From the NCBI GenBank assembly GCA_023267195.1, contig JAHFNT010000002.1, positions 23,830-87,829 on the forward strand: 64,000 nt of DNA, read 5' to 3'. The stretch's first letter is position 1. Every line of letters starts with the position of its first letter. The DNA comes from Candidatus Nomurabacteria bacterium (GTDB taxonomy: Bacteria > Patescibacteriota > Minisyncoccia > Phycocordibacterales > UBA9973). Of the stretch, positions 45,100-48,645 are shown piece after piece. Under the pieces are notes generated by a model. It saw only the letters and a program-made list of their open reading frames with translations. It was not told the origin of the DNA and made no database searches. The translations under genes were made by a program, and so were the position numbers.

Positions 45100-46119
45100 T
45101 TAATTTCCGTTGTGCCAAAGTTCGGTTACCGAATCGCCGTTGTGCAAGTTGTCTATAATCTTGGCAAGCAGTTTAGAAGTTTCGATGATTTCAAGTTTTT
45201 TTATTTTTTTCTTGTTTTCCTCTGAAATACAAGAATCACTAAACCAAACAGCCTTGAAAGGCGCCTGGTTTAGATTTTCCACTGCTTCGCCAGAAAGTAT
45301 AGCGTGGGTCGCAGTAAAATATACATCTTTGGCACCATTTTCTTTTAAAGTTTTTAGCGCTTTTACTGCGGTACCGCAAGTGTCTGCCATATCGTCTGGA
45401 ATAATGCAGTTGAAACCTTTCGCCTCCCCGATTACTTCCATGACTTCATTATGATTAATTTTTTTGGGGTCGCGGAATTTATTTATGATAATAATATTTT
45501 CTGGAATTCCTAACTGTTGAGCTAGTTTTCGGCAAGCAGGCGCGGCACCCAAGTCTGGCGCCACGATTTTAAACTTTTCCAAATTAAATTTTTTTGAACG
45601 TATATGTTTTAAAAGAAGATCATTTACGTTTACATCGACAACAGGGATAGTCAGCGGATGCGCATTATAGCTTGAAGGATTATGCAGATGTAAAACTACA
45701 ATCCGATGCGCTCCAGCCATTTGTAAACGCATTGGAACTTTTTGGGAAAGCACAGGTTCTCGATGATTTGAAGGTTTGTCCTGTCTCGCATATGGCAGAC
45801 AAGGCATCACGACAGTAACACGGGCAGGCTCGCCTTGTTTCAAAGCATAAACCAGAGATTCGCATTCATCTAAGTCATTTGCCAATATTTCTTTATTTCC
45901 AAAACGTGGCTGAATAATCAAATAAACATCGCGGTCTCGGACCGACTCGGTATGATGGACTAAATATTCTCCATTTTTAAATTCTTTATAATTAACCGGC
46001 GCCAGCTTATTTTTTAAAAGTTTAGCAACTTTCAGCGCTAGAGTTTGATTGATTCCGTTCGGACTTCCGTATAACTTCAAAGGGTAAGGGTTCAAGTTTA
46101 TCTGATTTCCACTTGTCAT
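45100..46119 (-). CDS. prs: Ribose-phosphate pyrophosphokinase
   Basis: F.NGE, VRDRDV, PYARQDK, APDLGA, DDMADTCGT, ATHA. Confidence 0.92.
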   Translation of the reverse strand: MTSGNQINLNPYPLKLYGSPNGINQTLALKVAKLLKNKLAPVNYKEFKNGEYLVHHTESVRDRDVYLIIQPRFGNKEILANDLDECESLVYALKQGEPARVTVVMPCLPYARQDKPSNHREPVLSQKVPMRLQMAGAHRIVVLHLHNPSSYNAHPLTIPVVDVNVNDLLLKHIRSKKFNLEKFKIVAPDLGAAPACRKLAQQLGIPENIIIINKFRDPKKINHNEVMEVIGEAKGFNCIIPDDMADTCGTAVKALKTLKENGAKDVYFTATHAILSGEAVENLNQAPFKAVWFSDSCISEENKKKIKKLEIIETSKLLAKIIDNLHNGDSVTELWHNGN

Positions 46120-46140
46120 ATTAAAAATACTCTAGCATAA

Positions 46141-46187
46141 AAAAGAAAAAATGGCGACCGGCTTCCGTGAAAGGAAGCTGGCCGCCA
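46141..46187 (-). terminator. Intrinsic terminator of cassette A
   Basis: TGGCGGCCAGCTTCC-TTTCAC-GGAAGCCGGTCGCCA followed by TTTTTTCTTTT; homologous to 46771-46815. Confidence 0.8.
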
Positions 46188-46242
46188 ATACCCAGATAGT
46201 GCTGGACGCACAGCGGGGGGCCAGTTCCGCCGATCCGTGGCC

Positions 46243-46269
46243 CTACCTAAACGGCCAGTAGTGGTACAC
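46243..46269 (-). CDS. 8-codon mini-ORF (M)YHYWPFR
   Basis: AAAGGGAGGTGG SD, then GTG TAC CAC TAC TGG CCG TTT AGG TAG; positional homolog of 46854-46880. Confidence 0.55.
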   Translation of the reverse strand: MYHYWPFR

Positions 46270-46327
46270 TCTTCCACCACCTCCCTTTAAGTGTTTTACT
46301 CTTTATGCTCGAATGCGTCGAGCGGCG

Positions 46328-46528
46328 CTAACTGGGAGAAACGCAGTTCTTGGTATCGAGTTCTACCCTAAGAGAAGCCTCGTCCCTGTTCCCTGTGGGG
46401 TAGCCAAATGTTCCAGTTACCACATTACGACAATCCACACAGGAAAGCATGATGATCCCGGCATGAAGCTTCTCGAGGTAAACCGACTTATTTACGCAAG
46501 AATGTACGCGAGTTTTGGTTTCCACCAT
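46328..46528 (-). CDS. 66-aa small protein, possible zinc ribbon (H-x-C...CxxC)
   Basis: AAGGAG SD 7 nt before ATG; HSC and CVDC motifs; lies inside cassette A. Confidence 0.6.
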   Translation of the reverse strand: MVETKTRVHSCVNKSVYLEKLHAGIIMLSCVDCRNVVTGTFGYPTGNRDEASLRVELDTKNCVSPS

Positions 46529-46635
46529 TGGTCTACTCCTTTTTCTATTGTCGACGAACTAGGTGTTCTCGCGAAACGAGAACACCAGCCTTCGGTGGCT
46601 GGTGTTTGAGTTGTAAGTTATGTTTTTGAGTATTT

Positions 46636-46719
46636 TTACAGCGCAAATATCAGCCTTCGAAGACCTTTGGTAAAGCTGAAAAAGAAATAACTATTTGCTT
46701 GTATGTTGTTTTTATTCAC
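46636..46719 (-). CDS. Putative Phe-rich leader peptide (M)NKNNIQANSYFFFSFTKGLRRLIFAL
   Basis: GTG exactly 6 nt after -10 TATACT (the genome's leaderless spacing); YFFFSF cluster; overlapping alternative hairpins downstream. Confidence 0.6.
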   Translation of the reverse strand: MNKNNIQANSYFFFSFTKGLRRLIFAL

Positions 46720-46725
46720 AAGCAC

Positions 46726-46770
46726 AGTATAGCGTATATTTTAAAAAAGACAAATTTAATTTGTGGATAA
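46726..46770 (-). promoter_or_regulatory. Cassette A promoter: DnaA box TTATCCACA (46762-46770), -35 TTGTCT, -10 TATACT
   Basis: Box, 8 nt, -35 (46748-46753), 16 nt, -10 (46726-46731); spacing identical to cassette B. Confidence 0.7.
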
Positions 46771-46815
46771 ATTTAAAATCGGCGACCGGTCCCATGAAAG
46801 AAACCAGTCGCCGAT
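46771..46815 (-). terminator. Terminator of cassette B
   Basis: ATCGGCGACTGGT-TTCTTTCATGGG-ACCGGTCGCCGAT followed by TTTAAAT. Confidence 0.75.
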
Positions 46816-46853
46816 GCGATGCGGTGGGCCAAGCCGCTTTTACCCCTCCGGCC

Positions 46854-46880
46854 CTAACGCCACTCAGGATCCCAAAGCAT
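46854..46880 (-). CDS. 8-codon mini-ORF MLWDPEWR
   Basis: AAGGGAGGTGATCC SD, then ATG CTT TGG GAT CCT GAG TGG CGT TAG; upstream ORF stops inside this SD. Confidence 0.6.
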   Translation of the reverse strand: MLWDPEWR

Positions 46881-46885
46881 GCGGA

Positions 46886-47062
46886 TCACCTCCCTTCGAT
46901 CCTTGCCTCCGATCCCTTACCAGATAGTCTGAGCTCAGAACGCAGTCTTCTGTTTTCTTCCTTGAGTTGATCAATCTCATTCAACAACTTGTCGATTGCG
47001 TTTCTGAGTCTTTCTCCTTCGGTTTCGCTATTGATCCTGGCAAGCGAAAAGGAATCCCACAT
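46886..47062 (-). CDS. 58-aa coiled-coil protein MWDSFSLARINSETEGERLRNAIDKLLNEIDQLKEENRRLRSELRLSGKGSEARIEGR (not in the ORF track)
   Basis: GGAGGTGA SD; heptad pattern L..EI..LK.EN..LR.EL; manually translated. Confidence 0.7.
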   Translation of the reverse strand: MWDSFSLARINSETEGERLRNAIDKLLNEIDQLKEENRRLRSELRLSGKGSEARIEGR

Positions 47063-47074
47063 GATTTCACCTCC

Positions 47075-47180
47075 AAAGAACGAAAATCAGCACTTCGATT
47101 GCGCTGTTTAATTAATTCCTTGTTTGGTTCGGTAGAAAAAAGAAATCAACAGAATAGCGCAAAAGCGGATGGTTTTGCGC
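47075..47180 (-). promoter_or_regulatory. Trp attenuator-like alternative hairpins
   Basis: 1:2 GCGCAAAA/TTTTGCGC; 2:3 TTGCGCT/AGCGCAA; 3:4 CAGCGC-AATCGAA-GTGCTG followed by ATTTTCGTTCTTT. Confidence 0.65.
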
Positions 47181-47232
47181 CCCACCAAGATTTCGTTAAT
47201 GTATGTATTTTGTAGTTCTGTTTCATATTCAT
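47146..47232 (-). CDS. Putative Trp leader peptide MNMKQNYKIHTLTKSWWGAKPSAFALFC
   Basis: Tandem TGG TGG immediately before attenuator segment 1; directly downstream of trpS-trpR. Confidence 0.65.
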   Translation of the reverse strand: MNMKQNYKIHTLTKSWWGAKPSAFALFC

Positions 47233-47246
47233 ATTCTTTCACACCA

Positions 47247-47274
47247 ATACTCTTGTATCTATGTACTAGTACAT
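47247..47274. promoter_or_regulatory. Putative TrpR operator
   Basis: Palindrome ATGTACTAGTACAT with 8-bp-phased degenerate half-sites (ATACTCTT GTATCTAT GTACTAGT AC) over the predicted +1; adjacent trpR. Confidence 0.55.
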
Positions 47275-47317
47275 GATAACATGATAAAAAAATAATGCAA
47301 ATAATGCATGTGGATAA
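47273..47317 (-). promoter_or_regulatory. Cassette B promoter: DnaA box TTATCCACA (47309-47317), -35 TTGCAT, extended -10 TGtTATCAT
   Basis: Box, 8 nt, -35 (47295-47300), 16 nt, -10 (47273-47278). Confidence 0.7.
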
Positions 47318-47330
47318 GTGGGATAAGAAA

Positions 47331-47627
47331 TTATTTACCCAACTTTTTGAACATTAAATTAAAACCGCCATTTTTATTGCGTAATTCACGAGATCCGCGA
47401 GTGACCGTACTAATACCGAGCCCTAAATCCCCCGCTACGGATCTATGGGTCTCTCCTTTATTTAATTTTTTAACTATTTGCCACCTTAAAGCCATAGTTT
47501 CAAATTCTGCGGGAGTAAAAATATCTATCAAGAACTCTGCCATTAAATTTTTATCACCATCAATTTTAGAAAAAACTTCTATTAATTCTTTCTTATATTC
47601 TGAGATTTTTTTGTTAACGTGCCTCAT
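47331..47627 (-). CDS. trpR: Trp repressor family protein
   Basis: FTPAE...MALRWQIV..L..G..HR.VA..LG.GISTVTRGS..L; follows trpS. Confidence 0.85.
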   Translation of the reverse strand: MRHVNKKISEYKKELIEVFSKIDGDKNLMAEFLIDIFTPAEFETMALRWQIVKKLNKGETHRSVAGDLGLGISTVTRGSRELRNKNGGFNLMFKKLGK

Positions 47628-47637
47628 GTTTTGAACT

Positions 47638-48645
47638 TTAAAAATAATCAATCTGAACTCTCATGCGAACCTGTTTCATTGTTTCTTTCGCAATTTCTCG
47701 TGCGTGCATTGTACCTTTTTCTAATATCTTCATCACGGCATCTTTATCTTTTGCCAATTCTTCCCTTTTTGTTCGTATTGGCGCCACTAATTTCTCTAGA
47801 ACTTCAATTAACCTCTTTTTTATAACAACATCACCAAGTCCACCTTTTTTATATTGTTTTTTCAGTTCTGTAATTTCTTCTTTATTTGGATCAAAGATAT
47901 CTAAATAAGTAAATACAACATTCCCTTCTACTTTCCCGGGATCATTAACATGAATATGATTTGGATCAGTATACATATTCATTACTTTTTTTGAAATTTC
48001 TTCGTAACTATCTGAAAGATAAATCGCATTATTTAAGGATTTACCCATTTTTGAATTTCCATCAATACCAATCAATCTTGGAGTATCACCCACTAGATGT
48101 TTAACATGACTAAAAGTTTCTCCGTAAAAACGATTAAAATCGTCTACAATTTCATTGGTCTGCTCAATCATGGGCTTTTGATCTTCACCAACTGGAACAA
48201 TGTTACTATGACAAAATAAAATATCTGCGGCCTGAGAAACAGGATGCATTAAAAATCCAGCCGGTACATCTTCTCCATAACCTTTGTCTTTCATTTCATC
48301 TTTTACTGTTGGATTTCTCTTGAGCCGCGCTAGTGTTACTAAATTTAGAAACAATACCGTAAGTTCAGCTATTTCCGGAATTTCAGATTGAATAAACATA
48401 GTCGTTTTATTTGGATCAAGTCCACAAGCCAAGTTGTCCAGAACCACTTCTAGAACATTTTCCCTTACTTTAGTTGGATTATCTGCATTAGAAGTTAGGG
48501 CTTGAATATCGGCAACCATATAGAAAGATTTGTCTACCTTACCCTGAAGCTTGACTCTATTTTGTATTGAACCTACAAAGTGCCCAAGGTGAAGTTTCCC
48601 TGTTGGCCTATCCCCTGTAAGTACTATTTTTTGTTTATTTTCCAT
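47638..48645 (-). CDS. trpS: Tryptophan-tRNA ligase
   Basis: TGDRPTGKLHLGH, PVSQAADI, VPVGEDQ, KMGKS. Confidence 0.97.
   Translation of the reverse strand: MENKQKIVLTGDRPTGKLHLGHFVGSIQNRVKLQGKVDKSFYMVADIQALTSNADNPTKVRENVLEVVLDNLACGLDPNKTTMFIQSEIPEIAELTVLFLNLVTLARLKRNPTVKDEMKDKGYGEDVPAGFLMHPVSQAADILFCHSNIVPVGEDQKPMIEQTNEIVDDFNRFYGETFSHVKHLVGDTPRLIGIDGNSKMGKSLNNAIYLSDSYEEISKKVMNMYTDPNHIHVNDPGKVEGNVVFTYLDIFDPNKEEITELKKQYKKGGLGDVVIKKRLIEVLEKLVAPIRTKREELAKDKDAVMKILEKGTMHAREIAKETMKQVRMRVQIDYF

Follow-up and report, generated by a model that had tools for sequence, protein, structure and literature searches.

The DNA analyzed here is a 64,000-nucleotide stretch (the window, with positions counted from its first letter) of contig JAHFNT010000002.1 from a Candidatus Nomurabacteria bacterium (GCA_023267195.1), a very small organism that depends on a host. 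Within it, two very short open reading frames (ORFs), mini-ORFs A and B, each stand behind a Shine-Dalgarno (SD) sequence and run from their stop codon into a small two-stem RNA module followed by a terminator. The two units were found to belong to a larger family of such minigenes. The source genome (G000) was 91% complete with a GC content of 39%, and the genus comparison set comprised 212 genomes, G000 included.

Mini-ORFs A and B between trpS and aspS

On the minus strand, the locus begins with trpS and trpR and continues with a promoter palindrome, a Trp leader, hairpins, a 58-amino-acid (aa) orphan ORF, mini-ORF B, its module, and its terminator. Unit A follows with a second promoter, a leader containing the run YFFF, hairpins, a 66-aa orphan ORF, mini-ORF A, its module, and its terminator. 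Beyond unit A, prs is preceded by an extended -10 box of its own and followed by aspS. All features below are on the minus strand except the palindrome, which has no strand. Mini-ORF B (46854..46880) has 8 codons, with an ATG start, the residues LWDPEWR (Trp at 3 and 7), and TAG. Mini-ORF A (46243..46269), likewise of 8 codons, has a GTG start, the residues YHYWPFR, with two Tyr, one Trp, and one Phe, and TAG. Both had been proposed in a sequence-only reading of this DNA, and the positions and peptides given there were reproduced. The SD of mini-ORF B (46883..46896) can pair over 10 consecutive nucleotides with the canonical 16S rRNA tail, and that of mini-ORF A (46274..46287) contains a 7-nt match.

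From each stop codon onward, the module comprises two stems, S1 and S2. In module B (46816..46854), S1 is formed by 46854-46850 with 46830-46826 and S2 by 46837-46834 with 46824-46821; in module A (46208..46243), the corresponding arms are 46243-46239 with 46222-46218 and 46231-46227 with 46216-46212. The predicted intrinsic terminator of unit B (46778..46815) has a 16-pair stem with a pairing probability of 0.98 to 0.99 under all of the ribosome masks described below, and that of unit A (46153..46186, predicted fold) is followed by a T run. The 150-nt regions around A and B folded better than 200 of 200 shuffled sequences (z about -4). In G000, SD-led ORFs of 3 to 15 aa were at chance level (23, compared with 14 to 33 in 10 shuffles), whereas aromatic-rich SD-led short ORFs numbered 4, compared with 0 to 1 in 10 shuffles. 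It is through the existence of a family that A and B stand above chance. No Rfam model reached its gathering score in the window, eight subthreshold matches in 46100-47350 were chance-like, and ARAGORN found nothing.

The gene upstream of both units, trpS (47638..48645; PF00579, E value of 1e-56), encodes a tryptophanyl-tRNA synthetase, presumably specific for Trp rather than Tyr, as the name is drawn from the adjoining repressor gene. That gene encodes a TrpR-family repressor (47331..47651; PF01371, 58.5 bits against a cut-off of 27). A 14-nt palindrome (47261..47274) at the -10 box of a promoter-like site (47301-47273) is, to judge from the usual shape of TrpR operators, what we take to be the operator. 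The Trp attenuator leader ORF (47146..47226) has 26 codons with tandem Trp, and its hairpin region (47088..47181) includes terminator-like stems at 47181-47156 and 47106-47088. The 58-aa orphan ORF (46886..47062), a predicted coiled coil beginning Met-Trp, has an 8-nt SD at 47074-47068; no Pfam family matched it above the cut-off, and its Atlas matches were hypothetical clusters only. In unit A, the -10 box of the promoter-like site (46726..46753) adjoins the start of the Phe/Tyr leader ORF (46636..46719; 27 codons), and the attenuator scaffold with its terminator hairpin (46583..46647; hairpin at 46597-46583) is conserved. The 66-aa orphan ORF (46328..46528) has a 6-nt SD and no Pfam match. 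The prs feature (45100..46137; PF13793 and PF14572) comprises the gene at 46119-45100 and the extended -10 box at 46137-46129, ten bases ahead of the start; prs is regarded as context and not as a regulated target.

Both leaders recur in the genus. The Trp leader pattern was found in 10 of 212 genomes, in some relatives ahead of an anthranilate synthase gene or a PALP (TrpB-like) gene. The Phe/Tyr-type scaffold matched 40 times, in 31 of the 212 genomes, and a control pattern not at all; in G398 the scaffold lies ahead of chorismate mutase; 2 of the 40 matches come from G327 (unpublished), and the minigene claims are independent of that genome. Judged by their sequences, the leaders of units A and B are real attenuator types. 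The cassettes are read as being under TrpR and attenuator control between trpS and aspS, with the minigenes as their end payload. No match to the TrpE, TrpB, or chorismate mutase of the relatives was found in the 91% complete G000 genome.

Several other features of these leaders and orphans were observed. The attenuator scaffold, with its fixed C-terminal leader motif, is reused with varied sensing codons (Phe/Tyr, Ile/Leu/Val, Ser, and Cys-like), mostly upstream of unrelated GC-rich orphans and not of enzymes; a second copy in G000 lies on contig C7 ahead of a gyrB-like sequence. The Met-Trp N terminus is common to the 58-aa ORF and several ORFs behind Trp leaders (L129, L005, and L169), which possibly form a small family, given their similar N termini. 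The Trp content of orphans behind both leader types was 2.0 to 2.6%, compared with 0.9% at the genome level.

The minigene family and its two-stem module

In total, 22 two-stem modules were identified, 20 of them in 18 of the 212 genus genomes and 2 on metagenome contigs, a lower bound in view of incomplete genomes and strict filters. Seventeen of the 22 were preceded by a strong-SD frame of 3 to 14 codons, of which 16 were intact and aromatic and 1 was frame-broken; for the remaining 5, no mini-ORF ended before the module. A trpS-like, trpR, aspS, or prs sequence lies within 1.5 kb of 16 of the 17 minigene units. The homologs in G009, G431, G398, and G352 came from DNA and pattern searches, and those in G337, L155, and L129 came from searches with the leader only. 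Covariance models were built on the 36-position module alone, with no SD, start, or stop included. With model R2, run on 151 genomes, 17 matches were obtained in 15 of the genomes. Ten had not been found before; of these, 6 had an SD-led Trp ORF directly ahead, 1 had an SD and a broken frame, and 3 had neither. Model R3 gave 19 matches in 18 of the 211 other genus genomes, adding G115 (with an ORF) and G167 and G020 (without). Its weak matches in G323 and G480 lie inside opposite-strand genes and were dropped as chance.

In 150 order-wide genomes, R3 gave no true match (a single match was judged chance), and a species-wide scan gave 27 matches, of which 24 were chance and 3, in Patescibacteria, brought no new peptide, with none true outside Patescibacteria. 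Viral contigs gave no module matches. A metagenome scan for the Trp leader returned 58 matches, most of them chance, from which 2 new units and 1 duplicate were obtained. A strict 18-nt module pattern searched in 301 family genomes hit G000 only, the draw having missed the carriers, and of the 12 matches to a loose pattern in the genus, 6 were true and 6 chance, the control giving 21.

With the family in hand, several features shared by A and B could be placed. The common ending aromatic-Arg-TAGGGCC holds for the pair but is not a family trait, as exact TAGGGCC was found in 4/17 frames and a final Arg in 3/17; in the window, TAGGGCC occurs twice, at A and B only, against 4.5 occurrences expected. 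Likewise, the equal length and shared Pro do not extend to the family (8 codons in 6/17 and Pro in 4/17). The placing of the start codon in a hairpin loop was borne out for A in the minimum free energy fold but not for B, where that fold pairs GATCC with an upstream GGATC instead, and it was not conserved across the family. The TGA of the 58-aa ORF does lie inside the SD of mini-ORF B, but the translational coupling suggested from it is not general, since no upstream ORF is present in G431, G403, G413, and G198.

S1 (GGGCC with GGCCC) and S2 (GCGR with YCGC) cross each other, so that the module probably forms a compact pseudoknot or, if not, two alternative folds. The 1-nt third loop is atypical for an H-type pseudoknot. 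In an alignment of 19 sequences, 87.9% of cells were paired, and there were 13 two-sided changes (12 in S2 and 1 in S1), a result reached by 0 of 500 shuffles, although the alignment was fitted to S2 and 43 of 500 shuffles reached the score on the first 9 sequences. RNAalifold alone returned S1. When parts of the RNA were masked, S1 was dominant with the upstream part masked, and S2 formed with S1a masked, with a probability of at least 0.5 in 12 of 22 modules. Pairing of the module with 16S rRNA was also considered and rejected, the longest complements being 6 to 8 nt and at differing sites.

The position of the last Trp codon was more regular than that of the start. In 13 of the 15 ORFs with Trp, the first base of that codon lies 8 to 9 nt before S1, whereas the start-to-S1 distance ranged from 14 to 44 nt and the stop-to-S1 distance was 2 to 3 nt in 11 of 16. 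In A (Phe) and G009 (Tyr), the last aromatic codon is also 8 nt before S1, this codon having been chosen post hoc. With the last Trp codon in the A site, S1 would begin 11 to 12 nt from the first P-site base, in the entry channel. Hairpins at 11 to 12 nt, such as those of dnaX and the human immunodeficiency virus (HIV), hinder A-site tRNA binding according to the cited passages of PMC7282821. The ribosome-trapping RNA module named among the options of the sequence-only reading fits this geometry. The frameshift stem-loops described in those passages and in the cited part of PMC8861025 stand at the same distance but are long hairpins, whereas the module has short crossing stems, and no slippery site or conserved shifted product accompanies it.

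The mini-ORFs range from 3 to 14 codons, including a bare Met-Trp-Trp. Trp accounts for 36 of 138 residues after Met in the 17 frames (26%, the total including the broken G221 frame), compared with 0.94% in long ORFs, and Asp accounts for 23. A typical mini-ORF has Met, Trp at position 2 to 5, an acidic residue, and Trp or Trp-Trp within one codon of the stop; Asp follows the first Trp in 9 of 15, and in 12 of 15 the final run of Trp has Asp or Glu directly before it. Mini-ORF B and its G431 ortholog differ by 4 synonymous changes and 1 amino acid change. In three disjoint pairs, synonymous differences were 7/10.5 sites and nonsynonymous differences 9/64.5 (Fisher p of 0.0005), in pairs picked for equal length among kin that are not independent. 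The mini-ORFs are, by these substitution patterns, under coding selection. The GC content at third codon positions (0.41) gave no sign of GC-rich host codon use. In G009, a 4-codon Tyr-x-Tyr ORF stands before prs in the same position as A, and all 4 Tyr (4/4) fall in A and G009, both behind YFFF leaders.

The counter-case set out in the sequence-only reading was that homologs keep the RNA structure and lose start, stop, or frame. For the most part the opposite was found, with SD, start, frame, and aromatic codons present in 16 of 22, and a translated unit is supported by the sequence comparisons, a purely noncoding RNA being unlikely. In its wider form, in which the ORF is incidental to a noncoding RNA or a programmed recoding site, that alternative is very improbable. 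The five modules without an ORF and the covariation of both stems speak for it, but the codon-level selection does not, nor does the search with the module-only model, in which 6 of the 10 matches newly added proved to have an SD, a start, and Trp, and one more had a broken frame. For recoding, the products of -1 shift, +1 shift, and read-through were unrelated and of 0 to 67 aa in 16 units.

It could also be supposed that the cassette is a relic, derived from an SD-using donor or ancestor and decaying, with the module retained as a 3'-end stabilizer. Its patchy occurrence (18 of 212 genus genomes), the broken or shortened copies in G221, G171, and G413, the modules without an ORF, and the unrelated orphans that neighbor it would suit this origin. 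However, 16 of 17 units share one locus type, the SD is 92% identical against about 67% synonymous divergence, and no true match was found in 150 order-wide genomes, outside Patescibacteria, or in viral contigs. The relic explanation is largely refuted by the conservation of SD and codons, and we consider it quite unlikely.

A second-tier attenuator had likewise been suggested, in which a stall at aromatic codons opens an antiterminator into prs, aspS, or the next unit. ORF, hairpin, and terminator do stand in series, the 3' arm of S1 in unit A can pair by eye with the 5' arm of the terminator, and in G398 and G337 a presumed racemase-like gene without an obvious promoter follows the module hairpin. 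In an equilibrium model, however, terminator pairing shifted by no more than 0.13 between masks for free RNA, a ribosome at Trp, and a ribosome at the stop, in 22 of 22 units. The terminator was therefore predicted to fold whatever the ribosome position, which goes against control of the next gene. In addition, an extended -10 box lies within 90 nt downstream in 12 of 22, and the next gene is convergent in 5 of 22 (G352, G374, G347, G167, and G020). Like the leader peptides of attenuators such as trpL and pheL, the minigenes have stems, a terminator, and a short ORF in which the sensed amino acid is abundant. They differ in lying at the 3' end behind real attenuators, in the ribosome-independent folding of the terminator, and in having an SD, which the true leaders in the window lack. 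Nor do they precede a promoterless gene as attenuators do, the racemase-like gene in two genomes being a possible exception. Very little credence is given to this explanation.

Two further proposals concern the peptide itself. Biarylitides have a fixed short precursor with a Y-x-H/Y core. The aromatic-x-aromatic spacing in A and G009 resembles such cores, and the peptides are comparably short and aromatic, so that a ribosomally synthesized and post-translationally modified peptide (RiPP) or pheromone precursor, biarylitide-like or with crosslinked or prenylated Trp, was considered. Against this, no P450 and no radical S-adenosylmethionine enzyme was found in the 91% complete G000 genome, no modifying gene was seen beside the 17 units, lengths vary from 3 to 14 codons with no leader peptide, and Y-x-Y occurs in 2 of 17 only; the RiPP-like precursor is hardly credible. 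Alternatively, the peptide may act in its own cell as a short acidic Trp-rich motif (W-D...D/E-W-W/F), binding a protein or serving as a signal, which is unlikely. Conservation extends beyond Trp (Asp in 9 of 15 and Asp/Glu in 12 of 15), and nonsynonymous differences are proportionally fewer than synonymous ones. On the other side stand the length range of 3 to 14 with the bare Met-Trp-Trp, the inefficiency of a Trp-rich product under Trp shortage, the lack of any signal peptide or maturation enzyme found, and an SD paradox that stays (see below). The conserved residues are compatible with an arrest peptide of the TnaC or SecM type. TnaC stalls in a Trp-dependent manner near its stop; the mini-ORFs are far shorter, have no fixed Trp-to-stop spacing from the start, and, at 3 codons, would be too short to reach the ribosome tunnel.

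A number of side observations concern the modules and their loci. Four modules without an ORF lie at another locus, ahead of a convergent gene pair that we take to be small membrane or pilin-like genes; this second module group (L172, L174, L181, and L182; G374, G347, G167, and G020) ends GC-rich gene runs, and in G167 a strong SD and ATG lead straight into S1. In L168 (G336), another SD-led frame, of 6 codons and closed by Trp and two stops, lies some 100 nt ahead of the module and is likely a decayed duplicate. A short hairpin motif recurs in the 5' region downstream of the Trp attenuator in L059, L093, L109, L111, and L148, and upstream of the TrpE-like gene in L109 stands an SD with nothing but a start and a stop codon after it. 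What is presumably an Asp/Glu racemase-like gene accompanies the trpS-aspS interval in L059, L092, L112, and L005, and a 252-aa ORF in L171 (654-1412; G353), which we take to be desuccinylase/aspartoacylase-like, lies between the Trp leader and the minigene. In 13 of 22 units, GTTCTTY occurs no more than 600 nt upstream, and it was considered as a boxA; however, the rRNA leader has no exact match, only 2 of 16 checked SD-led GC-rich orphans carry it, and the idea was rejected, the motif being most likely an attenuator U-tract. NusB is present (G000:C7:42023-42430), and no Rho RNA-binding domain was found in the 91% complete genome.

Shine-Dalgarno sequences without an anti-SD

The 16S rRNA gene of G000, on the same contig (C5:152877-154424), contains no CCTCC in the gene or in the 150 nt beyond it. 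The same tail without CCTCC was present in all three relatives from which a 16S sequence was recovered with the Rfam model (G115, G403, and G167; 10 genomes searched), and minigenes occur in G115 and G403, with SDs of 8 and 11 nt. The cited passages of PMC9297842 give a detection rate of 48% in Parcubacteria, report anti-SD loss for a subgroup of them, and expect no SD helix in such lineages; G000 resembles these organisms in having a tail without CCTCCT, but those passages do not mention conserved SD-led genes such as this family. Measured against the canonical tail (GAUCACCUCC, as given in the cited part of PMC10582724), the SD of B is near-maximal as written, as had been noted, but not for the ribosome of its own cell.

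All 17 minigene frames have an SD match of 7 to 11 nt. The earlier remark that housekeeping genes mostly lack one agreed with a count of 3 in 404 ORFs of at least 200 aa with a 7-nt match, a crude measure based on the first ATG only; the starts of long ORFs are A/T rich. In 7 disjoint pairs, the SD was identical at 58 of 63 positions (92%) and the 10 nt ahead of it at 18 of 70, while synonymous sites were about 67% diverged. The complement runs past the core (TGAT), and the spacing is 5 to 10 nt with a mode of 8. No conserved partner for the SD was found in cis, and masking of the SD by the module was not conserved. No CsrA was found. Apart from the antisense of B and a single site that appears to be coding, no tail-like GATCACCTCC RNA was found.

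An SD was also frequent among the orphans behind attenuators, where a match of at least 5 was counted in 23 of 46, compared with 1 of 4 recognized enzymes, although the orphan count is inflated by the preference of the script for SD-led starts. In that scan, 50 of 54 ORFs were covered, the four omitted being a duplicate, a near-duplicate, an ORF picked in the wrong frame, and an ORF that was cut. The other ORFs behind an SD in G000 are for the most part short, GC rich, and unnamed. About 16 SD-led ORFs stand alone on C1, C2, C5, C6, and C7 with GC contents of 0.46 to 0.66, several with a promoter immediately ahead and some hydrophobic. In L010 (G018), a sense 16S-tail-like sequence at about 2196-2210, at the end of a cassette ORF, is an opposite-strand SD with no start.

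Since the 16S rRNA of the cell itself cannot pair with these SDs, the minigene message may be meant for the ribosomes of another cell. To pair with a complement conserved in this form, a 16S tail of the canonical type is needed, and the closest one would be in the host.

Possible readers and function of the minigenes

The reading tentatively preferred here, though held at well under even chances, is that starvation induces the minigene and that the ribosomes of the host translate it, making it a sink for aromatic tRNA or amino acid. Family, SD and frame conservation, place in the regulon, stems, terminator, and 16S tail are drawn from sequence, and the reader, the transfer, the stalling, and the sink are inferred. 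The unit would be a minigene message consisting of a canonical SD, an aromatic-rich acidic ORF, a folded module from the stop onward, and a terminator. A shortage of aromatic amino acids would switch it on in its own cell through the TrpR operator, the Trp or Phe/Tyr attenuator, or both, the SD-less attenuator leader being readable by the cell's own ribosome; such induction follows the known logic of TrpR and attenuation. The SD would have been preserved for a reader with a canonical tail, most plausibly the host ribosome, which would be reached when either the RNA or the cassette DNA passes across the cell contact. In the host, the SD would drive frequent loading of ribosomes. With the folded module lying at their entry channel, these ribosomes would be held on the final Trp (or Tyr/Phe) codon, and the corresponding tRNA with its amino acid would end up bound in peptidyl-tRNA or in short soluble peptides. 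The host would then perceive a shortage and step up its synthesis of the amino acid missing in the parasite.

The lambda bar minigenes are of the tRNA-sequestering type. In the cited passages of PMC2490762, minigenes of 3 to 8 codons with hungry codons near start and stop accumulate peptidyl-tRNA and can so tie up one tRNA, and it is by analogy with these that a sink for tRNA and amino acid is proposed here. The ORFs are similar, and few codons combined with a strong initiation signal were found in the family as well (3 to 14 codons and an SD of 7 to 11 nt), a comparison valid only for canonical-tail ribosomes. The family differs from those minigenes, as described in the cited passages, in being chromosomal, in its amino-acid-specific control, and in its conserved fold and acidic residues, and drop-off would apply to it only by analogy. 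The rnTrpL/peTrpL of Sinorhizobium, a small RNA and peptide of the Trp regulon acting in trans, is a similar class of product; in the available descriptions, rnTrpL is a 5' attenuator product made at plentiful Trp, whereas the minigene would be a read-through payload made when Trp is short. With respect to transfer, coupling-protein-type ATPases are present in G000, and the secretion systems of Patescibacteria mostly lack a relaxase and are thought to be co-opted (bioRxiv 2025.01.22.634366, cited part). The more specific idea of a message from episymbiont to host, with the SD as address, the aromatic codons naming the wanted amino acid, and the module draining the matching host tRNA until the host raises its production of that amino acid, is speculative and unlikely.

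Several observations weigh against a host-read sink. Neither the cited parts of the literature nor this analysis revealed a route by which RNA could enter a host bacterium. The mini-ORF is, as far as the sequences indicate, dispensable in places, with five modules lacking one and one frame broken. The stems of the module are just 4 to 6 bp each, while pausing demands a specific structure length and shape (PMC8861025, cited part). The register of Trp to S1 provides modest support, supportive and not decisive, as substitutions alone keep the distance. A and G009 are probably orthologs, so that the association of Tyr with YFFF leaders would count as one event. Some genus members with leaders keep trp or phe enzymes, and in G352 and G398 such enzymes and a minigene occur together. 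The kinship of the ORF pairs and the inflated orphan SD count belong here too. Finally, the minigene in G403 directly follows trpS with no clear promoter, which suits a transcript used in its own cell.

A close rival, accordingly, is a trap in the cell itself, which is possible though doubtful. The cell's own ribosomes would start without SD pairing, or by means of a factor that reads the SD, and would stall at the hungry codon on the module. The outcome would be an amplified starvation signal (uncharged A-site tRNA and RelA), parked ribosomes, or an altered RNA half-life. A RelA/SpoT domain is present in G000, the geometry of Trp to S1 fits equally well, no transfer is necessary, S1 and S2 alternate under masking in about half of the units, and the G403 arrangement is accommodated. 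A trap of this kind, however, leaves unexplained why a 9- to 11-nt canonical complement is kept without a matching tail while core genes have no SD, and no SD reader was found in cis, as CsrA, or as a tail-like RNA.

The sequence features point to a combination of minigene and roadblock outside the attenuator, recoding, and RiPP families. The family was not described in the literature examined on attenuators, small ORFs, and host-read SDs of the candidate phyla radiation, although the supplements of large RNA-motif and small-ORF surveys could hold it. Should the idea of a message from episymbiont to host be correct, the SD-led orphans of anti-SD-less Parcubacteria would be host-translated effectors. 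The supply of amino acids to Patescibacteria from their hosts and the cargo of their secretion systems are open questions (PMC11665869 and bioRxiv 2025.01.22.634366, cited parts), and the cited parts of the literature leave unanswered what reads the SDs that persist after anti-SD loss. The family offers the cleanest test object for these questions, with a length of about 100 nt, a near-invariant SD, and a predictable inducer in Trp or Phe/Tyr shortage. Either outcome would be new, namely, a host bacterium translating the message of its parasite or the reading of an SD and trapping of ribosomes without an anti-SD.

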